A stretch of 52,782 nt of DNA, from the IMG/VR virus record IMGVR_UViG_2718218129_000002; one strand, written 5' to 3'. A model generated the notes under the pieces. The model was not told the DNA's origin. It saw only the letters and a program-made list of their open reading frames with translations, and made no database searches. Position 1 is the stretch's first letter; each line of letters opens with the position of its first letter. Both the position numbers and the translations under genes were made by a program. The DNA comes from a virus (Duplodnaviria > Heunggongvirae > Uroviricota > Caudoviricetes). Shown one piece after another: positions 1,815 to 51,251 of the stretch.

Positions 1815-4800
1815 TATGCAAGCCTCACAATATAGTTAAATGCGATGTTTTTGACGGTGTTTTCCGCGTTACCAGCAGCGTTAACGGTGATGGTGTGTCC
1901 ATGTGAACCAATCGCAACGGAGTGCGTATGAGCACCAATACCGACAGTATGCGCGTGTGCACCTGCGCTTGCAGCAGTGCCGGACAGTGAGTGGGTATGT
2001 GCGCCAGCAGATGATGTTGCATAGTTTTGATTATGCACAACAGACAATCTTGTTGATGCACTACCAGCACCGGAGTTAGCACTAGCCGTGTTCACGTTGG
2101 CTAGTGAGTGTGTGTGTGCTCCAGCCGAGTTTGTAGAGCCGCTCACACTGTGTGTATGTGCCCCGGTGTTATTCGTGGATTTAGTGCCGTAATCAAACGA
2201 CGATGTGGTTTTCGTCCCCAAATCTGTACTGGATGCGCTGGCGCTGTGGGTATGCGATTTAATGCCGTCCTGTTCCTGAGACAATACGGCCCGACCACTG
2301 GCAGGTTTGCCCTTAATCGTCCAGCCACGCATATCAGGGATCACGCCTGACGGATAAGCGGCTGCAAGTTTCGGGTAAGCAGATTTGTCAAAAGCCTGCC
2401 CCTGCATCAGGGCATAACCAGACGGAACGGTATCTGATGGCCACGGGATTGGTGCGCCGACTGGGTAGCTTTCTGGTGGAAGATTTTTCGAGGTATAAAC
2501 TTCTGCCCAGTCTTCCTCAAAACCATAACCGTCTCTTGAAGAACGGTAGAACAGACCACCATTTCTGTAATGCGCCTTCATCTGCAGGGTCCGGCAACTT
2601 CCGACTCCGGTATAGAAGTTAACCAGAATATAGCTGTCGCCAGAGCGGGTGACATTGTAAGCGCCTGATTCGGCATTCCATGGAACGCCACCATCCGCAT
2701 CGGCATATGTATCCGTTGCCCTTCTGGCAAAAGCAGCCACATGCGCGGCGGTTAAAGTAATATCTTTGGAACCATCAAACTCAACACCAGAAACCCGTCT
2801 TGGCGTTTGCAGCTTTGTTGCTGTTAATGCATTACCGTTCAGACTTGCGGACAGTTTGGTTCCAATAACCAGTTCGCCGGTTGCGTTATCAATAGCAAAC
2901 GGTCTTAATGTATTCCAGCCACCATAAACATCACCTTGATTGGTAAGCAGCAGGTAAGTTTTAGCGCCATCATTACGCCATAATGCACCATACTCCCCAC
3001 CTATCATTCGAATCTGATTACCACCACGCGCTACAATTTCGTCTGTGGCAAAAAGTTTTTTGCACGACAAGTTATCGTTAACGATTAACGAATGAGACTC
3101 ATAAAAACCACGCCCACTCTTAAAATCAAGGATAACGTCCGCCGCGATACATTCAGTCGCCGGATTTGTTGCCCCAAACTTATAGGTCGTATCATTAACA
3201 ACGAGATCAGCACCAGGTGCGGATATTGACAGGCCATCTTCAATAAACGCAAAAACAGGGAAAGCAGCGCCATCAACATAGAACACAGAGCGCAAATCAT
3301 CGCCCTTATTACTCATCATTATTGAGTGAATGGCTCGTTCATTGTTTTGATATTGCCAGAACATGCCATAAGCATAACGCCCCCTGTCAGTCCAGCCACC
3401 AGGCATAACAAATCCGTTAAACTCGCAGTTATTCATCGGATCGCCTGCGGTTCGCGTTGCCGTGGTGATAATGACTCTTGATGCCAGTTCGCTTACTGAG
3501 CCAGCAGAACGCATAACAACAACAGGGTAATATTTTCCAGATGTTGCACCTGCAGGAGCGTTAACCCGCACATAACGCATACCACGCTTATCAGCAAAGT
3601 CTGTTTTACTGACCGCGTTAATGTTGTTCAGGAAGCGTCCCTTATCGGGTATATCAGCGCCGTTCTGGTCTTTCTGCAGACGTTTCTCTGCATTGTCATA
3701 GGCTGATTTTACTGCCTTTGGCGTTGCCGCCAGCGTTTCAGACGTACTGTTGGTCGCACTGCTGAGCTGTACTATCCCCTTTTTCGTCGTACTTGCATCC
3801 TCAAGCGCCACGGCGGATGCAATATCCTCTGCCCGTTTTGCCGCTGTCTCGGCGCGCGTTGCCGCGGATTCCGCCGTACTTTTGCTCTGTGCTGCCGCCG
3901 TCGCACTGCCAGCTGCCTCTGTCGCCTTCGTGGATGCTGTCGTGGCGCTGCCCTTCGCTGCGGACGCTTGTCTGGTCGCCTCATCTTTTGAAGCAGACGC
4001 CGATGATGCCGATGACGCCGCCGAACTGGCGGACGATGCGGCAGCCGTTTTTGAGGATTCTGCGCTGGTTTCCGACGCTTTCGCGTTCGTCTCGGATGTC
4101 TTCGCTGCGGAAGCAGACCTCGCTGCTGCGCTGGCCTGTTCAGTGGCTTCGCCAGCCTTCGTTGTGGCTGTTGAAGCAGACGATGCGGCACTTTCTGCCG
4201 ATTTTCCGGCGGCGGTGGCACTGGCTGAGGCCTGCCCGGCACTTGTTGACGCGGCACTGGCAGACGACGCAGCCGCTGTTTTTGAGCCTGCCGCAGCCGA
4301 GGCGCTCTGTCCCGCTGCCGTTTCAGAAGACCTGGCGTTTGTCTCAGACGTCTTTGCCGCCTTCGCGGAATTTCCTGCCGCCGTTGCCGAGGAAGCTGCA
4401 CTACTGGCGCTTGATGATGCGTTCGTTTCTGATGATTTTGCCGCTTCTTTTGAGGCCGCCGCATCCCGGGCCGAGGTCGCAGCTTCTGATGCCTTCGTGG
4501 TCGCGGTGGATGCAGATGTGGCTGCTGATTGTTGTGACGCTGAAGCATTCGTTTCTGACGTTTTCGCCGCACCGGCACTGGTGGCCGCCGCGCTTTTTGA
4601 GGACTCTGCAGCGGCAGCACTTTTTGATGCTTCAGTGGCCTTTGTTGATGCCGTTCCTGCGCTGGAAGACGCTGACTGAGCCGACGACGCGGCCTGTCCG
4701 GCTGACGTGCTGGCTGCGCGTGCTGAGTCCGCAGCATCAGCCGCATGGGTTGCCGCCTCACGGGCTGATGTGCTGGCATCACTGGCTGACTTCTTCGCGG

Positions 4801-5176
4801 CTGCCGTGTTCTGTGCCACCACGGACGCGTTACGCGCCACCTCTTCCACCATCAGTTCAAAACGGCGCAGTGCCTCAGGACGGGCATCATCCTCCGTCAT
4901 GGCACCGAGAAAATCATTCAGCGTACCGGGTCGGGAATCTTCATACACGGTGATGGTCCCGGCATGTGACGGCGGGAATCCTTCCACCAACAGAATAACG
5001 CTGTACTGACCGTACTCAACGTCCATGCTGTAACGCCCGGCTTCATCCGGATTTTCTGAGGCCAGCGTGTTCACCACCACCGTGGTGCTGTTACGTTTTG
5101 CTTTCAGCTGGATTGTGCAGTTCTGTACCGGTTTTCCTGTGCCGTCTTTCAGTACACCTGAAATCTTTACTGCCAT
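1814..5176 (-). CDS. stfR: side tail fibre protein Stf
   Basis: N-terminus [25 protein letters not shown]... matches lambda Stf as recalled; long Ala/Ser/Thr repeat region; C-terminal GAHTHS repeats ending [11 protein letters not shown]; start set at second Met (5176) by analogy to lambda. Confidence 0.9.
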
Positions 5177-19921: not shown

Positions 19922-20686
19922 TTAATCAACGATTGTGATACCGTCTTTCAATGCGTTTTGCTTACCTGCAACATCCAGTGCATCAAAAGCAGAGCGTTTC
20001 ATCGTTTTCTGACCAATATCATGCTGTGTCGGACGGGAGCCGCCGCCATTGTTGCCACTGGCTTTCAGGATGTAGTCTTTCTGAGGGTAATTTTCGACAA
20101 GGAACTCCAGCGCCTCATCAAACTGCGCCAGTTCGCCAGGCTTCGCGCGGGAATAAATTTTGTTGCCGGAAGCGTCATAAGCAACGATCCTCCCTTCTTC
20201 CACTTTGAATGCCTGCCCGAAGCGGGCTTGTAATAAATCTGCCGGGATCGCAATTTTATCGGCAATATATTTTGAACCCGCAAAACTACCGCCAATCATA
20301 GAATCGTAAAGCTGCTTCTCCAGCATCTGAGAGCGTTGCTTTTCTTCATCTAATTGCTGCTGAAAATTTTTCGTAATTTCTGCCTTAACCTGGTCAACCT
20401 GTCCCGCATCGAGCAGCTTTTTCTGGTCGATTTTTGACAGCATTTCCAGTGCCTCGATCGCCTTCTTCGGGTCTTCGATAGCGGCAAACTTAGCCAGTTT
20501 TTCCTCTGCAGCTTCTTTAGCCAGGCGATGATTTTTTGCCTCGCCATTAAGCTCTGTAATTTTTTTTGTCGCCAGCGGTGCATCGAAGCCAATTTCTTTA
20601 CCATCGTCGTGCACATAAACTGGCAGGCCAGCAGTATCAATTTCTGCGTATTGTTTTCCGTTAATCTCGACCGTTTTCAGTTTCAT
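19922..20686 (-). CDS. scaffolding protein
   Basis: Start set at MKLKTVEING...; charged coiled-coil-rich centre; between head morphogenesis protein and capsid. Confidence 0.6.
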   Translation of the reverse strand: MKLKTVEINGKQYAEIDTAGLPVYVHDDGKEIGFDAPLATKKITELNGEAKNHRLAKEAAEEKLAKFAAIEDPKKAIEALEMLSKIDQKKLLDAGQVDQVKAEITKNFQQQLDEEKQRSQMLEKQLYDSMIGGSFAGSKYIADKIAIPADLLQARFGQAFKVEEGRIVAYDASGNKIYSRAKPGELAQFDEALEFLVENYPQKDYILKASGNNGGGSRPTQHDIGQKTMKRSAFDALDVAGKQNALKDGITIVD

Positions 20687-31131: not shown

Positions 31132-31281
31132 TTCTTGCTCCTCAATCCATTAAAATCTCAGCAATAGTAGTTGTTACGTCCGCCACTGGCTCAGAGCTGA
31201 CTATCCGCTAAATTTAGCTCAGTGCCGTAGCTGTGTCAGAACAAACCTAAGCCGAAACCGTTTATTACAAAACAATAAATA

Positions 31282-31710: not shown

Positions 31711-32647
31711 TTTTCCTCACATATGTCATATAGTAAAGGATTATATATACCGTTGTTTTGGACGCTCAAACAGCGAATCAGATCAAATAAAACGCACATT
31801 TGTTAACATTTACACAAAGTCTGCGTGGGATATTCTGAAAGAATATCCATAATGTGGAGAGAATCTATTGAAGTGCATGGTGCCGGGTGCCTCCCGGTGA
31901 ACAAAATGTTCGTGATACCTGTCGGCGACAGAAAAGGTTAATGGTATCACCCCACCGCACAGGGGGATTCACCATGCAGGAGTTTTCTTAGCAAACTCAC
32001 TGCGCGCCCGGCAACTCCCAACCACATAAAATGCGGAGTTTGTGGTATTTATGCATATAACTCGCAGGAATTATCTTAAAAAACTGATGTCGATCCGGAT
32101 TAAAAAGAAGCAGGTCATCATCAGATGACTGGAAAAAAGGAAAACAAAAAATACTCATCATACAGTTTTGATTGCAGGGATGAGCCTGCTATGCACAATA
32201 TGCAGAATATAAGCAAGATAAAAATATGCAGGCATATTATTTCGGATTTTGTTATTAACACAACCTTTTTAATAATCATTTGGCATACAATAAACCAGCC
32301 CAAAAAGAACCGCCTAAACAGGCGGTTGGTCAATACAAAGGATGCTTCGTCTTTATTATAGTAATCTGAGGCGTCGGGTGTCTTGTATCAGACAACATAT
32401 TGTCCCGCTAAACAGCGAATTACAAACCACCCTGCAATGATCTCTCATCTCATTTTATATGAGTTGACGACATCAGGATAACGCATCATCAGCCCCTGCC
32501 AAGAAATATCAAAACTCCCGCCAGCAATGTGTTATCACAATATTGTAAAAAAAACACAGCACCGAAACTATAACTGGTCTCTGTTATAATTTGGAGCAGA
32601 AAGACCAGTTGCCCAACTAGCAGCATTCTCCCCTGCTTTCCTGACGT

Positions 32648-34611: not shown

Positions 34612-34860
34612 TCAGAGGTTGCGGGGATTTCTCCCCGCTGGTCCTCTTACTCCCCAAGTTCGTAAGCTGTGAAGACAGCGACCTCCGTCTGGTCGGTTCG
34701 GATTCGTACCTCGCAGAGGTCTTTCCTCGTTACCAGTACCGTCACTATAACGGTTAAACAGATGACGATCAGGGTGATTAACATCGCCTTTTGCTGCTTC
34801 ATAGCCTGCTTCTCCTTGACCTTTTGGTCGGTAAGAGGCTAATCTACGTATGCAAAGCAT
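34612..34860 (-). CDS. mok-like overlapping reading frame
   Basis: 82 aa frame covering hok, as mok overlaps hok in characterised hok/sok loci. Confidence 0.4.
   Translation of the reverse strand: MLCIRRLASYRPKGQGEAGYEAAKGDVNHPDRHLFNRYSDGTGNEERPLRGTNPNRPDGGRCLHSLRTWGVRGPAGRNPRNL
34621..34638 (-). terminator. hok mRNA 3' hairpin
   Basis: GCGGGGA-ttt-CTCCCCGC perfect hairpin just after the hok stop; no clear U-run. Confidence 0.4.
34647..34802 (-). CDS. hok: Hok/Gef-family type I toxin
   Basis: Hand translation MKQQKAMLITLIVICLTVIVTVLVTRKDLCEVRIRTDQTEVAVFTAYELGE; Hok-like transmembrane toxin, 51 aa. Confidence 0.8.
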   Translation of the reverse strand: MKQQKAMLITLIVICLTVIVTVLVTRKDLCEVRIRTDQTEVAVFTAYELGE

Positions 34861-34925
34861 AGATGTGGCCTCAGATTAATGTTAAGCGTCTTGCCGGACG
34901 CGTAATGTTAACTGGGGCTTTTCTC
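34850..34925 (+). ncRNA. Sok-like antisense RNA (approximate position)
   Basis: TTGACC -35 and TAATCT -10 candidates on the plus strand opposite the mok start; boundaries not determined. Confidence 0.3.
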
Positions 34926-35298
34926 TATCTGCCTTTGGTGTTCATGCCCGAGGCAGACAGCCTCAAGCACCCGCAGCTATTCTACTTAACTCCCGTTACC
35001 TCGCCAATATGAAATCAATCAGAAAGGTGATCCATAAGAGCAATAGCAAGACCATAGATTGCCATTACAGCCGCTATAGTTTCTCTGATTTATTCTGTGG
35101 AAATGGGACACAACACCCCGTCACCACCACCACTTCCTTAAATGCGCTAAGTCAGTCACAAGCCAACACTTTAGTCCGCTTTGAGCGAAAAGCTGACAGG
35201 AGTTTAAATAATCAGTTAAGGCATTACAAAAAGCATGTGCTAATAGAGATAACCAGAGTCAATATATAATCTCTTAGCTCTATTTACACTTACGTACA

Positions 35299-36003
35299 TT
35301 ATTCTTGCTTTTTGGGAGGTCTTGGATATTTCGCAGGTAATTTTTCTGTAATCTTAAATATATCCTCATTTTTTAGTATTGTTCGCATTACAAAATTTTC
35401 TATAATTACCAAAAGCGATTTAAATTCAGTTTCGTTCGGTGCCCATGTCCTGTGTGCAGCTGAGTTGCCAGCTTCGGTTACAATTTTAAGTTGGCTCCTT
35501 TCTGTTTCCCCAATAAAACCTTCCTCTTTAAGAATGTCAACCTTCTGGCCTAATGTATATCCTGGATGAATATTTAGAACCTCAACTGTTCTGTCAAAAA
35601 TAGTTCTAAGTCCAATCGCCGCTAAAATGAATGATTTATTTTGAAATGCGATGTACATTTCGTTCATTATTACATACAGCTGACGATCTTTGTTTAATAT
35701 CTCACCAAACCAAGTTGGTCTAATCTCTTCTTGCTCTTGAGTGGGATATGTTGATATATGATAGTTATATACCATACAATCATAGCCTGACTCATCTCTT
35801 TCAATGTCGTAATCTTCACTGTGACGGGATTTAATATATGTAAATATTCCGTCGCACCCCATACACTCTAATAATTTGTATTCACTTTCAGCCCAAAAAT
35901 AGTTGCCCCCATCATCCTCACTCCATTCTCTTTTTTTATGGCCTATTATGTGGCAATTTTTTTCACCTTTACAATATGGACAAGGAGCTTTAATTTTTTC
36001 CAT
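35299..36003 (-). CDS. zinc-ribbon protein with HEPN-like (DUF4145-like) C-terminal domain, candidate defence protein
   Basis: 234 aa; CPYC...CMGC zinc ribbon; C-terminal helical domain with GNSAAHRTW; AT-rich gene; the domain family is uncertain. Confidence 0.55.
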   Translation of the reverse strand: MEKIKAPCPYCKGEKNCHIIGHKKREWSEDDGGNYFWAESEYKLLECMGCDGIFTYIKSRHSEDYDIERDESGYDCMVYNYHISTYPTQEQEEIRPTWFGEILNKDRQLYVIMNEMYIAFQNKSFILAAIGLRTIFDRTVEVLNIHPGYTLGQKVDILKEEGFIGETERSQLKIVTEAGNSAAHRTWAPNETEFKSLLVIIENFVMRTILKNEDIFKITEKLPAKYPRPPKKQE

Positions 36004-36717
36004 GGTAATTATTCTGCCATTTAAATTAAAATTGATATAACATATATGCTATATGATTTATAAATGATGAACTTACGGCTCACTTTACTACAATAATTTT
36101 CATATGAGTAGTGATATGCCTCTCATTTTCTTTGTCGTTGATTGATCTGCTCTACATTGATTAACACCGAATGGGAGTAACTCCCGCTTTTGGCAGAGTG
36201 CGAACAAGCTGACCAAACCTTAGGTCCGCAGTGAGCGAGGAGCGAGCATTGGCCTTATAAGGCATCGGAGCTGTTCTCCGGAGATCCTCTGAAAGCGAAC
36301 TGTTCGGTTAAGCAGGACGCTTACAAGGCAAGCTTAGCGTGTTGTCTTGTGATGGGTTGCTTAAACCTTTTGTGAAGGTATTTTTCTATCGAAAGATAAT
36401 TAACTGAGGTTGTTATGTCATACATTCGCGTCGAGAAAGATGACCTTCAGCATTAATCAGATTATTTCTGTGAAGAGGATATGGTTACAGTCTGTAGAAC
36501 TTAGGGGATTGTAGTCCAGTGTGGTTGTTAATGAGATGGCAGAAGTAGCTGCTGTTCGTACTGCGTTGCGAAATCTCATTAGAGAAAATCGGGTTGATCC
36601 TCTAACTGATTGAATATACATTCCTATTGCTCACGAGTTGGAATGAGCTGTGACTTTTTAGCTTTAAACTTAACTTTAAGACAATTTTATGATCACGTTA
36701 GGGTGTAAGAAGGATAT

Positions 36718-37944
36718 ATGAGCGGAGAAGTATTTCATAAAAGATTGTTTCCCGTTGGCCAGGGTGGATTTAGTTTAGGCGGACTGAGGGGAAGGGATGG
36801 TAGTTTGCTTTACAGTTATGTGTATGACTGCGGAAGTGACCAATTAAATGCGTTGCGTAGGGAGATGGATGTGGCTAAATCTCTCTTTAATATTGATGAG
36901 AAATATATTGATGTGGTATACATCTCTCATTTGGATTCAGACCATATAAATGGATTTGACCATTTATGTCAGCTTGTAGATAACAAAATACGCAAGGTTG
37001 TATTACCATACCTAGATATCCATGATAGCTATTACTTAATTGCATCGGAGCTATGCTCTAATTCTACGTCAGGTCTTTTTATGGAATTTCTCATTGATCC
37101 TGTCAAATGGATAAAATCAAGGTTGCCTGAGGCAGATATATCTTTGCTTTACCCCAGTGATATTGATGATAATTTTGACCCTCCTATATTTAATAGTGAA
37201 AACATTAAGGGTAGCGCTGTAAGCTTACCAATGAAAATATCTGACTCCAAAGGAGATGTTGAATGTAACCGTTGGTTGGTTAAAAGGATTGGGGAAAACA
37301 AAACTGATACACTAATGTCATTTATTTCTTGGATACCGCCCCGTTCACGTAAGAAAATTGAAATTTTCAGTCAGCAGTTAATAGAAAATGGTTTTACTGA
37401 GTTAAGTAAGAAAAAAATGCTTAAAATATTAACTAGCACGGGGGAAAGAAAGAAATTACGCGAGTGTTATTTAAAACTTGCTGGCGATCATAATGTAATA
37501 TCAATCAATCTCTTGATTATTAATAATCAAGAAGCTGAGATGAAAATTGTTAATGAGCCTTCTCGTGAGTGGTTTAGTTTTAGAAATAGTCGGGTTGAGC
37601 GACATTTTCTCTTTGATAGAGATAAAGGAATTAGATCTGTTTTATTAACAGGTGACTCAAAGCTTAATACATCATTGTATTATAATAAATGGGCTGAATT
37701 CTATTCAAAAGTGATTAAAACGGTAAGGGTGATGACATTACCTCATCATGGTTCGGAATTAAATTTCAATCAAAAAATAATTGCGGATTTTGATAATGTT
37801 TTGTTTATAGCTCAGTCGGATGGTCATTCACATGGACACCCATCACAATCAGTAATCGATGCTATAAATTCAAGTCATGGACATAGCGTTACTTTAGTTG
37901 ACAATAATGCTAAAAATTGGGTTGATATAAAATATATATTTTAA
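36718..37944 (+). CDS. metallo-beta-lactamase-fold protein
   Basis: 408 aa; ISHLDSDHINGF resembles the MBL HxHxDH motif; C-terminal LPHHGS as in ComEC-type MBL domains; AT-rich. Confidence 0.65.
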   Translation: MSGEVFHKRLFPVGQGGFSLGGLRGRDGSLLYSYVYDCGSDQLNALRREMDVAKSLFNIDEKYIDVVYISHLDSDHINGFDHLCQLVDNKIRKVVLPYLDIHDSYYLIASELCSNSTSGLFMEFLIDPVKWIKSRLPEADISLLYPSDIDDNFDPPIFNSENIKGSAVSLPMKISDSKGDVECNRWLVKRIGENKTDTLMSFISWIPPRSRKKIEIFSQQLIENGFTELSKKKMLKILTSTGERKKLRECYLKLAGDHNVISINLLIINNQEAEMKIVNEPSREWFSFRNSRVERHFLFDRDKGIRSVLLTGDSKLNTSLYYNKWAEFYSKVIKTVRVMTLPHHGSELNFNQKIIADFDNVLFIAQSDGHSHGHPSQSVIDAINSSHGHSVTLVDNNAKNWVDIKYIF

Positions 37945-38069
37945 ACATTAGTTGTATTAATAGCATTTAAATAAATTAAGTTTGTTGGTATGTTAAAAGT
38001 TTTTGCTAGATAACCAGGTCTTTTTTGACCGATGATACAGTCTTTGTTCCACGGTGACGTGTTCACACT

Positions 38070-38100
38070 CAAATCTCCTGCAATGTGGGAGATTTGAGTA
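38070..38100. terminator. bidirectional hairpin between convergent genes
   Basis: CTCAAATCTCC-tgcaatgtg-GGAGATTTGAG, an 11-bp perfect stem. Confidence 0.4.
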
Positions 38101-38184
38101 TGGTTGTCCCTGATGTGCGATAAGCGGACCTAACATTATTATGTTTTGAATAATAAGAGACAGTCAGTTGGCTGTAAGTCTGAC

Positions 38185-39078
38185 TTAGTTATCCAAAACA
38201 GCTTTTCTTTGTATTATTGTTCTAATAAATGCTGCTGATATATGCAACACGAATTCAGCATCGTATTCCAAGACAGAAGAAACCTTGTTGCTACCATGTC
38301 TTACTGCTGGCTCTGCATTTGTATAAGCGTAAAATTTCTCTATCACCGTTAAAAGCATAGGTGAGATAGTGTTTTCTTTTCTCATCAGTTTTAATACATC
38401 GCCCAAGGTTGAGGCTGAAGGATAATAAGTCCGACACATGCTTTCTATTGCACTTATTGATTCTTTTATGGAATTTTCTGGATCCTTATGCGCACCTAAT
38501 GCAAAAGCCCGGGCTTTCACATAGTGCCTCCTTGCAGGTTCAAACTGGTCTTGCAATAAGTTGTTAGTTTCATCGATTTTTTGTTCTAATTCATTTGGTA
38601 GTGGTGTTTCTAACCTACCAGCAGAATTCATTTTCCAGTCAATATTTCGAGATGCGAATAACTCGTTCAATTTCTGACGATATGATGTAAAAGTAATGTC
38701 TTCTAATGCCTTCTTACCCCAAGTATGGCCTCTTTCTACATCTCTTTTTCTTAATAGATCTCCGATAATCTCAACAGCATCATAAAATTGAAACCAACGC
38801 ATATGTTGCAAACGCGCTTTCAAAGCATCATAGCAGTACCATGAATCGAAATCCTCATGATCTGTTTCTTGACCATTCTCTGCGCAAAGTCGCTCGATCA
38901 AAGCCTTAATACCCAACGGCTTGTTCTCATCATTCGTAATGCGGCTATCACCATCAATGTACAAAAAATTATCGAGGACAGTTACAAAAAATAAAGAGCG
39001 AAGCCACTCTGGAGCATCTTCCCGTATCGGCTTTTTATTATACTCAGGATCAAAACCATGTCTGTACGAGAACTTCAT
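38185..39078 (-). CDS. hypothetical protein, candidate defence-associated
   Basis: 297 aa from MKFSYRHGFDPEYNKK... with GGGAG Shine-Dalgarno; AT-rich; no motif recognised with confidence. Confidence 0.55.
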   Translation of the reverse strand: MKFSYRHGFDPEYNKKPIREDAPEWLRSLFFVTVLDNFLYIDGDSRITNDENKPLGIKALIERLCAENGQETDHEDFDSWYCYDALKARLQHMRWFQFYDAVEIIGDLLRKRDVERGHTWGKKALEDITFTSYRQKLNELFASRNIDWKMNSAGRLETPLPNELEQKIDETNNLLQDQFEPARRHYVKARAFALGAHKDPENSIKESISAIESMCRTYYPSASTLGDVLKLMRKENTISPMLLTVIEKFYAYTNAEPAVRHGSNKVSSVLEYDAEFVLHISAAFIRTIIQRKAVLDN

Positions 39079-39488
39079 CCCACATCTCCCATTCAACTGT
39101 ATGAATATTAGGTAATTATACAACCAACACAAATCCCTTTGCGAATACAAAAAAATCAAAAAATCACAACAAATTTAAGAACTGATCGCTTATTTCTCTA
39201 TGGATGTCCGCTTCTGGCACGAAGCGGACAAGTTACCGTAGCTGAAGGTCACTAATACTGGGGGCAGGTCAGTTCGCGTTTGTTCTCATAACGGAGTAAG
39301 ACGCTAATGGTATTAAGGTGTATTAATGATCAATGTAGATCAACGATTATTGGCGTTTAACGCTCAGATGAGAACGTTCACCGATTCTGCACGAACAAAT
39401 TCAGAATGGGGGGATTTGATATCCCCCTGGTAGATGCCTTGGTTAATGTTTATAGGTCAATTGAACTCAGAGCATCATTCTTGCCGCA

Positions 39489-40850
39489 TTAGAGATGGTC
39501 AAAAATAGACCCTTTGCGTGGAATAAGGATCTTCTCATAAAGCTTTGTTGCATAGTCATCAGTCATCCCTGAAACATAGTCGCAAATGACTCGCATACCA
39601 GCCTTCTCGTCCAAGCTAGTCTGCCGCTCGTAAATTTCCCTCGTTGATGCCGGTAGAAACCGACACGGATCGTTAGCCAGCACACCGAAAAGCTCAACAA
39701 TCAACTTTTGTCCCTTGAATTCAAGCTGCTGTACATTTTCATGCTTAATTACTTTATTTTTGACCAGTTTGAAAATTTTCAACCGTAGTGCTTCGACCGC
39801 TTCCGGAAGGACCGCATTATATTTGAGCATGCCACATTCGAATGCTGGATTCTTTGTAATAAGCTCAACGCTTGTAATCATCAGGTGAACCAGCATCCCG
39901 ATGCACTCTTTTCTCTTGTAACTTTCACCAAAAAGGCTATCCGCGACAGATTCACATGTTGCGGAAAATGTTTCTCCATGGCAGTTAGTAAATAGGGTTT
40001 CATATTCACTGAAATGCTCCATCCACATTTCTCGTGTCACCATTCCGAGAGAAATAGCATCCTCCAAATCGTGCAGCGAATACGAAATTTCATCGGCAAG
40101 ATCCATGATGGTTGTATCGAGAGCTTTATAAGAAGCTTTTTTATGATCGGATTTAGTTTGACCATCTTCAACGGAAGTAAAAAGCCTCCGATCCTGTTCA
40201 GTAAATGGTGAAAGAGCAAATTCTACAACATCGCATTCTGAATCTAGATAGCATTTTGGAGGTTTAAAATCAGATGACTTAAAGAGCCAGTTCGGCGATC
40301 CGATAGTGGCCGGGATTCTGTCTTTTGTAACCACTAGATCCGAGTATTTAACCGGATATTTCAGTATGCCTAGCAGAAGTCTGCGTGTAGGATCGAGTCC
40401 GTGTTCAACGGTATACTTATCTAGTTTCGAGAGAATGCGAAGTGTCTGACCGTTTCCTTCAAAACCACCGTAATCCTGCATACAGTAGTTAAGAGCTACC
40501 TCACCGCCGTGACCAAATGGAGGATGTCCAATATCATGTGCGAGACATACTGCCTGCATAAGATCGTTATCTGGTAAAAATTGCTCTTGCTCTTTACCTT
40601 TATATTTTATTTTCAGCTTAGCAAGAAGACCTGAACCGATTTGTGCGACTTCCATAGAATGAGTCAGTCGTGTGCGGTAGAAATCACTTTCACCCAGACC
40701 AAGAACCTGTGTTTTGGATTGCAATCGTCTGAAAGCAGACGAGTGAATCAGTCGAGAAAGGTCGTGCTGAGCTTCAGATCGAATCTCCTCCACACGATGA
40801 CTATTGGTGCCTCGTCTCTTATCCCAGACGTTTATTTCACTCCGAGTCAT
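39489..40850 (-). CDS. dGTP triphosphohydrolase (HD domain, Dgt family), likely anti-phage dGTPase
   Basis: RTRLTHSMEVAQIG and HDIGHPPFGHGGE HD-domain motifs; start set at MTRSEINVW by GAGGAA Shine-Dalgarno; about 453 aa. Confidence 0.8.
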   Translation of the reverse strand: MTRSEINVWDKRRGTNSHRVEEIRSEAQHDLSRLIHSSAFRRLQSKTQVLGLGESDFYRTRLTHSMEVAQIGSGLLAKLKIKYKGKEQEQFLPDNDLMQAVCLAHDIGHPPFGHGGEVALNYCMQDYGGFEGNGQTLRILSKLDKYTVEHGLDPTRRLLLGILKYPVKYSDLVVTKDRIPATIGSPNWLFKSSDFKPPKCYLDSECDVVEFALSPFTEQDRRLFTSVEDGQTKSDHKKASYKALDTTIMDLADEISYSLHDLEDAISLGMVTREMWMEHFSEYETLFTNCHGETFSATCESVADSLFGESYKRKECIGMLVHLMITSVELITKNPAFECGMLKYNAVLPEAVEALRLKIFKLVKNKVIKHENVQQLEFKGQKLIVELFGVLANDPCRFLPASTREIYERQTSLDEKAGMRVICDYVSGMTDDYATKLYEKILIPRKGSIFDHL

Positions 40851-41059
40851 ATTATTCCTCATTTTTACTTTGTACACTGCGGCATTCTAACGTAACTAAA
40901 TTATCAAAATAACCTATTTATTTCTGACCTAATCTTCAATAATCAATGTTGTGTGAACTTAGTTAGGCCCGCCCCTGGCACAAAACAGACAACCACGCTA
41001 GCCGTATCCTGTGCCATGAAACTGTCAATTCACATATGAATTAATGGTCTTTAATCTCG

Positions 41060-50854: not shown

Positions 50855-51049
50855 ATGAGATATGACAATGTTAAACCATGTCCATTTTGTGGTTGTCCAT
50901 CAGTAACGGTGAAAGCCATTTCAGGATATTACCGAGCGAAGTGTAACGGATGCGAATCCCGAACCGGTTATGGTGGAAGTGAAAAAGAAGCACTCGAAAG
51001 ATGGAATAAACGAACCACTGGAAATAATAATGGAGGTGTTCATGTGTAA
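50855..51049 (+). CDS. ralR: restriction alleviation protein RalR/Lar
   Basis: 64 aa from MRYDNVKPCPFCGCPSVTVKAISGYYRAKCNGCESRTG...; zinc-ribbon-like Cys pairs. Confidence 0.75.
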   Translation: MRYDNVKPCPFCGCPSVTVKAISGYYRAKCNGCESRTGYGGSEKEALERWNKRTTGNNNGGVHV

Positions 51050-51251
51050 AATTACCGCCACTATTGAAAAGGAAGGTGGCACTCCTACTAACTGGACAAG
51101 ATATTCAAAATCTAAACTAACGAAATCAGAATGCGAAAAAATGCTCTCAGGTAAAAAAGAAGCAGGCGTTTCCAGAGAGCAGAAAGTAAAACTGATAAAT
51201 TTTAATTGCGAGAAACTTCAGTCCTCGAGAATTGCATTGTATTCAAATTAA
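51042..51251 (+). CDS. ydaC: YdaC-like small protein
   Basis: 69 aa from MCKITATIEKEGG...; GGAGGTG Shine-Dalgarno. Confidence 0.55.
   Translation: MCKITATIEKEGGTPTNWTRYSKSKLTKSECEKMLSGKKEAGVSREQKVKLINFNCEKLQSSRIALYSN

Follow-up and report, generated by a model that had tools for sequence, protein, structure and literature searches.

Closest described elements

Among the described systems that come closest to the element considered here are insertion sequences (ISs) of the IS407 type and the stem-loop cassettes of certain phages. IS407A carries the inverted repeats TGACCTGCCCCCT/AGGGGGCAGGTCA and is associated with 4-bp target repeats (PMC2877748), and the left inverted repeat (IRL) of ISPa32 reads TGACCTGCTCCCCG... 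(PMC7378034). In the promoter-early stem-loop (PeSL) cassettes of T4-type phages, recombination between intergenic stem-loop motifs shuffles accessory genes and gives rise to mini-circles (PMC2839356). Herein we examine the gap between two divergent genes, at positions 36004-36717, in a 52,782-nucleotide stretch of viral DNA (IMG/VR record IMGVR_UViG_2718218129_000002; the whole stretch is called ‘the window’), which is an Escherichia coli Rac-type prophage. The GC-rich core of this gap is a copy of a dispersed palindromic repeat that we call E. We judge it likely that the gap is a mosaic joint between two accessory cassettes of the prophage, comprising a decayed E copy that resembles a MITE (a transposable element of the miniature inverted-repeat kind) and the pseudogene of a small open reading frame (ORF), and we do not take it for the locus of a functional RNA.

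Composition of the gap

The initial annotation of this DNA described the gap as non-coding sequence with a GC-richer, structured centre that might encode a structured non-coding RNA (ncRNA) working with the flanking genes, or else be the remnant of a degraded gene. Several of these observations are borne out. The flanking genes are divergent (a DUF4145/zinc-ribbon-like gene at 35299-36003 on the minus strand, and a metallo-beta-lactamase (MBL)-fold gene at 36718-37944 on the plus strand), and no intact ORF of 60 aa or more lies between them, the longest being 54 aa (36457-36621, minus strand), followed by fragments of 30-38 aa. Measured in 100-nt segments, the GC content is 0.51-0.55 over 36150-36349, versus 0.24-0.30 over 36000-36149 and 0.30-0.45 over 36350-36749. 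Both hairpins that had been pointed out are present (GGGAGTAACTCCC at 36173-36185 and CGGAG-ctgtt-CTCCG at 36266-36280), and the remark that the gap holds more than a divergent promoter needs is correct. Other descriptions apply only in part. The term ‘non-coding’ fits the absence of an intact ORF, but 36415-36613 is a pseudogene of a genuine small-protein family, and the term is therefore only partly true. Likewise, ‘structured’ suits the local hairpins but not the overall fold of the core (36143-36319), which is no better than that of dinucleotide shuffles on either strand. The proposed degraded gene exists in the ~200 bp of 36415-36613, but the GC-rich core is instead a decayed copy of a palindromic repeat. 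Thus, the gap is ordinary mosaic DNA (a relic repeat, a pseudogene and two upstream regions) with no dedicated ncRNA locus. Its parts are as follows.

36004-36142, minus strand: AT-rich upstream region of the DUF4145 gene (GC 0.24-0.30), which presumably includes its promoter
36143-36319, plus strand: decayed, MITE-like copy of palindromic repeat E with IS407/IS1222-type termini, equal to the GC-rich core (nhmmer and direct reading)
36173-36185: hairpin GGGAGTAACTCCC, by direct reading; confined to the copies of this lineage, without conservation across the family
36182-36205, plus strand: remnant of E hairpin 1, TCCCGCTTTTGGCAGAGTGCGAAC versus consensus GTCCGCTTCTGGCACGAAGCGGAC (alignment of 58 family members)
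36224-36251, plus strand: remnant of E hairpin 2 and ATTG, GTCCGCAGTGAGCGAGGAGCGAGC-ATTG versus consensus GTCCGCTnnGAGCGAGGAGCGGAC-ATTG (family pattern matches)
36266-36280: hairpin CGGAG-ctgtt-CTCCG, at the position of the family's short, sequence-variable third hairpin
36320-36414, plus strand: conserved upstream region of the small ORF, a putative promoter region (promoter-like TTGCTT at 36357-36362; ribosome binding site (RBS) GAGG at 36406-36409)
36415-36613, plus strand: pseudogene of a 65-aa protein family (homology to intact genes, and lesions)
36614-36717, plus strand: upstream region of the MBL-fold gene, with a presumed promoter and RBS (direct reading)

The gap has been struck by ISs elsewhere. 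In other E. coli strains with the same prophage (L002, L003 and one further match; handles of this form denote the loci collected for comparison), an IS3 element is inserted near 36284, inside the repeat, or an IS1 near 36375, in the small-ORF promoter region, and one strain has both. In ET490, IS1 lies in the gap, followed by loss of the MBL side. The region 36614-36717 stays with the MBL gene in strain E1 after IS3 insertion near 36284.

Architecture of repeat E and the state of the gap copy

Repeat E is an imperfect palindrome overall, of ~140-150 bp in the alignment of long copies; full-length copies measure 133-149 bp and the window copy 177 bp. It begins with TGACCTGCTCCCCGTTGATTAACA...AGCAAC, continues with GTCCGCTTCTGGCACGAAGCGGAC (hairpin 1), a ~20-nt linker and GTCCGCTnnGAGCGAGGAGCGGAC (hairpin 2), and closes with ATTGCTAACA, a short variable hairpin and GAATCAACGGGGAGCAGGTCA. 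The two central hairpins have common arms, GTCCGCT/AGCGGAC. The family has no conserved reading frame, and neither the full-length copies nor the window copy holds a conserved ORF.

The family profile matches 36150-36255 with an E-value of 1.7e-21 (nhmmer). Direct reading against the consensus places the left terminus of the gap copy at 36143 (TGATCTGCTCTACATTGATTAACA) and the right terminus at 36310-36319 (AAGCAGGACG), and the hairpin-2 motif GAGCGAGGAGCGAGCATTG is found at 36233-36251. The first blastn matches to the core were weak (a Klebsiella phage and a Pantoea plasmid), with the Pantoea copy exhibiting two clean hairpins that have the same arms. Copies homologous to the E of the gap occur in L005, L004 and L007. 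With regard to the smaller hairpins, GGGAGTAACTCCC is absent from the family alignment, L159 carries the related GGGGGAGTAGCTTCC, and the counterparts of the third hairpin in other E copies are ACAGCGTTCTGT, CCTCAAC..GTTGAGG and GTTAAC..GTTAAC. All four hairpin arms are mutated in the gap copy, as judged from the family alignment (in which row L001_9951 is identical to the window), and therefore this copy is probably an inert relic.

One of the homologous copies is found in Klebsiella phage GArcari-2022b (L004; CP101896, a 110-kb unannotated record), where the right half of E lies at ~4001-4100. This copy directly follows a GFA-like zinc-cysteine ORF (3570-3998) and has a ~80-nt extension in common with the window and L005 copies.

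Termini and distribution of repeat E

The termini of E are of the IS3-family (IS407/IS1222) type, TGACCTGCyCCC...GGGrGCAGGTCA, with full-length copies starting TGACCTGCTCCCC and ending GGGGAGCAGGTCA. The first 12 nt are identical or nearly so to the inverted repeats of IS407A and ISPa32. Moreover, L013 includes an IS1222-like element, recognised through the Rfam IS1222 frameshift element, both ends of which resemble the E terminus over ~45 nt. The score of this likeness past the first 12 nt was reached in 0 of 1000 shuffles for the IRL and in 6 of 1000 for the right inverted repeat (IRR). With these termini, E is built like a MITE descended from an IS of this group, and the simplest reading is that of a non-autonomous, MITE-like offshoot of an IS407/IS1222-type insertion sequence. 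We use ‘MITE-like’ and do not call E a proven MITE because neither a target-site duplication nor an empty site was found.

The family is widespread and unannotated. An exact 19-mer of hairpin 2, GAGCGAGGAGCGGACATTG, is found in 17 viral contigs and in genomes of ~27 Enterobacterales species, and a hairpin-1 pattern recovers 83 viral loci; the flanks of pattern-matched loci are unrelated and diverge at the hairpins. Matches to the 19-mer in Streptomyces and in metagenome-assembled genomes are coding-sequence or chance matches. Among 5,426 complete E. coli genomes, 2,517 contain matches to the E consensus (1-6 places per genome), with a near-full-length copy in only 71. The consensus is also present in 1,185 plasmids (Klebsiella 658, Enterobacter 192, Pantoea 129), with at most eight blastn places per Pantoea plasmid. 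No annotated feature coincides with E among the matches listed, either in E. coli genomes or in plasmids. A literature search by hairpin strings returned no paper and terminus strings led only to IS407A and ISPa32; no description or named element with the E sequence was found.

E copies delimit accessory cassettes

In prophages, islands and plasmids of enterobacteria, E copies are located between units of accessory genes. When the window alone is searched with the profile, six E-like sites emerge within 31.1-41.0 kb and none elsewhere, and the best match in a reversed-window control has an E-value of 0.87 (nhmmer). Each site separates accessory gene units. Besides the gap copy, the sites are as follows.

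31163-31225, strand uncertain given the palindromic nature of the element: E remnant of hairpin-1-like type, ACGTCCGCCACTGGCTCAGAGCTGAC, together with the left extension, between two TolA-C-terminal-domain genes (nhmmer E-value 3e-4)
35171-35198, plus strand: E remnant of hairpin-2 type, GTCCGCTTTGAGCGAAAAGCTGAC, on the 3' side of the DUF4145 cassette (nhmmer E-value 6e-4)
38098-38152, minus strand: tentative E remnant, the weakest site, between the convergent MBL and PDC-S32/AbiJ-like genes (nhmmer E-value 0.0026)
39204-39250, plus strand: E copy that retains the linker and an unblemished (perfect) hairpin 1 at 39205-39229 (nhmmer E-value 1e-10)
40940-41003, plus strand: E remnant of hairpin-1 type, abutting conserved prophage backbone beyond the dGTPase cassette (nhmmer E-value 4e-4)

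The copy at 39204-39290 has lost hairpin 2 by deletion, has a ...CAGGTCA terminus at ~39265-39271, and includes an exact match to CGCTTCTGGCACGAAGCGGAC at 39209-39229, a string with no match in 100 shuffles. The counterpart in L159 of the site at 35171-35198 is a fuller E copy (E-value 3e-16), and the right flank of 40940-41003 is common to many viral loci that have different cargo on the other side. The weak site at 38098-38152 suggests that the MBL and PDC-S32 genes are separate cassettes and not a two-gene system. Thus, the accessory region reads, in order, hok/sok, E, DUF4145, E (the gap), small-ORF pseudogene and MBL, weak E, PDC-S32/AbiJ, E, dGTPase, E and backbone.

The DUF4145 cassette is one such unit. 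The gene recurs with its upstream region, 36004-36142, in two other prophage contexts: L159 (E. coli EC11, 4058-4762), where it lies beside pinE and an integrase gene, and L160 (E. coli O121 strain 201805972, 4099-4803), a P2-like prophage in which it sits between tail-fibre-assembly and tail-sheath genes. Homology of L159 and L160 to the window stops at ~35202/35242 on one side and at ~36195/36201 on the other, which correspond to the E remnant at 35171-35198 and to the inside of hairpin 1 of the gap's E. The L159 cassette is also bracketed by E sites. Occurrence of this cassette in three unrelated prophage types (Rac-like lambdoid, pinE/integrase-bearing and P2-like) is therefore direct evidence of a moron moving between phage families.

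Across the family too, homology breakpoints fall in the conserved centre of E and arrays are co-oriented; the copy in the window is a degenerate one. Loci agree in one flank and part ways at the E hairpins. For the L155 locus, 428 genomes match but only 58 have both flanks; the others break inside E, retaining either the left flank and E up to hairpin 2, or the right flank and E from the linker or hairpin 2 onward. Two Pantoea plasmids have 11 profile matches each per 40 kb, located between units of 1-3 genes on either strand, and 21 of the 22 matches share one orientation. Among all loci collected, 118 of 122 adjacent E pairs point the same way, at a median distance of 1.6 kb. The cargo between E sites is diverse (82 different clusters among 115 units), and a sample of ten phage cargo proteins yielded four with matches to defence models (Tmn, PD-T7-1, PDC-S33 and PDC-S49).

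Dense co-oriented arrays, with approximately one E per 2-3 kb, are found at 17-39 kb in L156 (a Pantoea sp. BRR-3P plasmid) and at 17-32 kb in L157 (P. agglomerans pSUH1_A). These arrays on Pantoea megaplasmids separate metabolic, regulatory and toxin/immunity gene units, and an intact E of L156 lies at 20007-20145.

The small-ORF pseudogene

The second relic in the gap belongs to a genuine 65-aa ORF family, with 34 cluster representatives that are 65-98% identical and occur in E. coli, Klebsiella, Enterobacter, Citrobacter, Providencia and Xenorhabdus. Distant blastn matches of the gap to E. coli genomes cover 36320-36618 at 81% and 36406-36618 at 72%. In all, 113 E. coli genomes match the pseudogene stretch, and a ‘hypothetical protein’ annotation overlies the matches among those listed. 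Intact 65-aa ORFs are present in L005 (5097-5294) and L006 (5010-5207), the family is further represented at L068:4001-4198 and L070:4001-4201, and WP_021560858 is an intact member. Relative to L005:5097-5294, to which it has 83% nucleotide identity, the stretch at 36415-36613 carries two lesions, a GAA-to-TAA change at codon 14 (36454-36456) and a +1 frameshift caused by a G inserted at 36494.

The family has no Pfam, PHROG or PADLOC match. Its intact genes reside in islands, repeatedly just before or after ABC-three-component systems, and a nuclease-type gene lies downstream of the 65-aa gene in L005 (GIY-YIG) and in the window (MBL). Approximately 95 nt upstream of the small ORF are conserved in four of seven loci including the window, with TTGCTT-17-TATCAT in L005; the window shares this region with L005, L063 and L065, where it precedes intact ORFs. 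The notion that every small ORF is accompanied by E was rejected. An upstream E is found only in the window and L005, with a possible decayed trace in L065.

Alternative explanations

One rival explanation, advanced in the initial annotation, is that the core is a structured ncRNA (a small RNA or a cis-regulatory leader) working with the flanking DUF4145 or MBL genes, which we regard as very unlikely. The core is GC-rich with local hairpins, and intact E copies fold far better than shuffles (z = -5.2 as RNA for L057; z = -2.95 as single-stranded DNA for L156), yet the gap copy folds much like shuffled sequence on both strands (z = -1.0 on the plus strand and -0.5 on the minus strand for 36143-36319 versus dinucleotide shuffles; z = -1.6 for its central 91 nt). 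Some compensatory changes are evident in the central stems. Double changes that pair the right arm of hairpin 1 with the left arm of hairpin 2 number 12, against 5.4 expected (0 of 500 partner shuffles), and those in the stem of hairpin 2 number 6, against 1.9 expected (0 of 500); these counts come from subsets outside the positions fixed by the search patterns, and the shuffles ignore phylogeny, and hence they provide modest evidence. Two other stem sets, the stem of hairpin 1 itself and the outer cross-stem, exhibited no covariation. An early impression that G.T wobbles favoured the plus strand as RNA was rejected by counting. Across the E family, G.T and A.C mismatches are equally frequent, and therefore neither strand is singled out as transcribed. 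The element is palindromic and matches on both strands, and its symmetry looks like a DNA-level property (protein sites, a cruciform or arm-to-arm conversion) rather than an RNA fold. Certain E copies do sit at a fixed ~35 nt upstream of a gene start, but the genes beside E copies are unrelated to one another, and in the window all four arms are mutated. A covariance-model scan with Rfam, as the initial annotation proposed, returned no relevant match at the gathering threshold in the gap or in 17 loci with intact E copies, and at a relaxed threshold yielded only noise in 35900-36800 and in the intact copy L057. A promoter and terminator consensus scan of the gap found a single weak antisense match, below the shuffle count, with nothing framing the core and no promoter consensus within 36004-36142; a tRNA and tmRNA scan found nothing. 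Given the shuffle-like fold, the lack of an Rfam family and the lack of strand asymmetry, the ncRNA reading is unsupported. We hold it to be extremely improbable that the whole gap is the debris of at least one degraded protein-coding gene, with no repeat element. Although 36415-36613 is a pseudogene, and the gap tolerates damage, as seen from the IS1 and IS3 insertions in other strains, the GC-rich core matches a non-coding repeat family at the E-value given above, whose members have no conserved frame and lie in hundreds of unrelated intergenic contexts.

A further explanation concerns the nature of E itself, which might be a site for site-specific recombination and play the part of an integron attC or dif-module site, with IS-like termini that are incidental or ancestral. 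A trans-acting recombinase would then act on the paired hairpins, with their arms GTCCGCT/AGCGGAC, to insert and excise cassettes. We find this rather unlikely, but a number of features are in its favour. Inverted repeats of 7-8 bp with spacers of 8-10 bp are the geometry typical of recombinase core sites, and the E arms have these same dimensions. The near-uniform orientation of adjacent pairs and the regular arrays that bracket units of 1-3 genes on either strand accord with such a site, as do the four arms that tend to change together (e.g., L152_3331, L056 and L158), the lack of target-site duplications, and the breaks in homology at the hairpins and not at the E termini. However, breakpoints at the hairpins are also predicted by homologous recombination, because the hairpins are the longest identical stretches among diverged copies. 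In addition, no recombinase gene is consistently near E, direct reading of the consensus reveals no attC R''/R' motifs, and, in contrast to integron cassettes, cargo units often bring regulators of their own and occupy both strands. The arms CGTCCG/TGTCTG also resemble gamma-delta resolvase half-sites, and no serine recombinase is consistently adjacent; we leave this resemblance within the site-specific explanation.

Returning to the mosaic joint built on a MITE-like repeat, which we favour, there are several points that weigh against it. None of five full-length copies (L007, L155, L156, L157 and L158) has matching 3-4 bp flanks, unlike the IS407-group elements, which make 4-bp duplications (PMC2877748). 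The missing duplications could be due to age or to exchange of flanks by recombination. No empty site was found among matches to the L155 locus, in which the partial matches all break inside E, and E is therefore only a putative mobile element. Very few copies keep both termini, and a search for both intact termini recovered one true E copy (L007), the other three matches being unrelated GC-rich coding sequence. Divergence among the copies of a single locus is high, which makes any transposition an old one. A survey of neighbours found no transposase or recombinase consistently beside E copies; IS3-family elements co-occur with E in L013 and L156, with no cognate partner identified. Strong co-orientation is not predicted by random MITE insertion, and E may be transcribed or regulatory, for example as an insulator or a terminator. 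Finally, we built the consensus ourselves from alignments, the sample is biased by two exact search patterns (the hairpin-2 19-mer and the hairpin-1 pattern), and the sites in the window with E-values of ~1e-3 are weak.

Proposed origin and implications

We propose that E owes its origin to an IS3-family transposase supplied in trans, by which it may be, or once have been, dispersed. The centre of E, which is conserved, may provide portable homology for RecA or phage recombinases, or alternatively may be a recombinase site. Cassettes would be exchanged at the centre of E, excised as circles and re-inserted. A circle with a cassette and one E might insert again wherever an E is resident, and the shared orientation within arrays would follow from this. 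Within the window, the gap's E joins the DUF4145 cassette to the small-ORF/MBL cassette.

A bolder proposal, which we put forward only tentatively and consider doubtful, is that E elements are the recombination sites of an undescribed cassette-exchange system of Enterobacterales, in which an IS3-family transposase or another recombinase acting in trans captures, cuts out and moves accessory, often anti-phage, genes between unrelated phages and plasmids. As part of the same proposal, the system would form integron-like co-oriented arrays in prophage hotspots, islands and megaplasmids, and its enzyme would act at the paired central hairpins. If the exchange were driven by an enzyme, rather than by plain homologous recombination, it would be a new way for genes to pass among plasmids and prophages of lambdoid, P2-like and other types.

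For the window, the immediate outcome is that one candidate ncRNA is removed and that a relic repeat together with a defunct small gene accounts for the gap. More broadly, E occurs in almost one of every two complete E. coli genomes and in more than 1,000 plasmids, and it marks the joints of accessory and defence cassettes. E sites could serve as practical markers of where cassettes begin and end, and could help to foresee the limits of new defence genes in prophage hotspots. Those in the window separate hok/sok, DUF4145, MBL, PDC-S32/AbiJ and dGTPase.

Prophage setting

The stretch 35200-38200 has 100% identity to the chromosomes of a few E. coli strains, and the whole of it is present in only 8 of 5,426 complete genomes. 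Strains with this prophage include E. coli RM9513 and WGI31CT. In the RefSeq annotation of L001, the gap lies in a Rac-type lambdoid prophage, between replication genes (ydaV, DUF1627 and DUF977) and nin/Q-side genes (DUF1367, DUF1364 and DUF1133). The order of genes there is anti-phage dGTPase, hypothetical protein, MBL-fold hydrolase, the gap, DUF4145 protein and Hok/Gef. Because its neighbours are dGTPase, PDC-S32/AbiJ and MBL defence-like proteins, the gap is located within a defence-like accessory island. The C-terminal region of the MBL protein has PADLOC matches to LmuA, a reverse transcriptase (RT)-associated MBL and Avs1a. The other features of the window are as follows.

1273-1471: IS009 (Rfam)
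31821-32007: STnc100 (Rfam)
34797-34972: sok antitoxin RNA, adjoining the annotated Hok/Gef gene (Rfam)
35299-36003, minus strand: DUF4145 gene, zinc-ribbon-like, the cargo left of the gap (Pfam DUF4145; phrog_1305)
36718-37944, plus strand: MBL-fold gene, the cargo right of the gap (Pfam Lactamase_B; PADLOC)
38185-39159, convergent with the MBL gene: PDC-S32/AbiJ_NTD4-like gene, the hypothetical protein of L001 (PADLOC and Pfam)
39489-40877: anti-phage (defence) dGTPase gene (PADLOC and Pfam)
51048-51226: RalA antitoxin RNA (Rfam)

The sok, RalA, STnc100 and IS009 features are usual for Rac and lambdoid prophages.

Comparison with known systems

Enterobacterial genomes harbour other palindromic repeats, namely ERIC/IRU (RU-1), RU-2/YPAL and RU-3 (Delihas 2007, PMC2759123), and E is likewise an imperfect palindrome of 100-170 bp in enterobacterial intergenic DNA. 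ERIC and E even have short motifs in common (GTGAATC..AGGAGC and GTGAGCGA). However, ERIC occurs in essentially every E. coli genome, at 2-15 places, whereas E occurs in under half of them and mostly in mobile DNA. Identity with ERIC, which the ERIC primer sequences had suggested, was rejected given that the E profile finds nothing in a locus with a 100%-matching ERIC core. RU-2/YPAL and RU-3 were also rejected, their sequences being unrelated to E.

The arrays of E call to mind those of integron attC sites, in that both consist of co-oriented imperfect palindromes (~60-150 bp) between short cassettes with very diverse cargo. Unlike integrons, E lacks RYYYAAC/GTTRRRY boxes, neither attI nor an integron integrase lies near it, and the units it delimits can include several genes, with their own regulators, on either strand. 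Identity with attC was rejected on the grounds that direct reading reveals these boxes neither in the consensus nor in full-length copies; no integron integrase recurs among the neighbours.

With MITEs of the IS3 family (IS407/IS1222), including the cargo-bracketing pairs of the IMU and TIME-COMP type (PMC13367494), E has in common its small size (~140-180 bp), its lack of coding capacity and its TG...CA termini. Like these elements, it is dispersed over many replicons, and its copies bracket accessory genes. It departs from them in its low copy number per genome and in the absence of observed target-site duplications or empty sites. Further differences are its old, diverged copies, its strong co-orientation, and exchange that takes place at the centre and not at the termini.

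The PeSL cassettes (Arbiol et al. 2010, PMC2839356; Comeau et al. 2014, PMC4122927) provide a parallel of another kind. Both PeSLs and E are short conserved intergenic stem-loop motifs that punctuate hyperplastic accessory regions, and the copies of both are sites at which accessory genes are shuffled, deleted and replaced. A PeSL comprises a sigma-70 promoter and a functional terminator, whereas the window copy of E carries neither consensus and its hairpins are without T-tracts. Unlike PeSLs, E possesses IS-type termini, and it is also found on the plasmids and chromosomal islands of many Enterobacterales.

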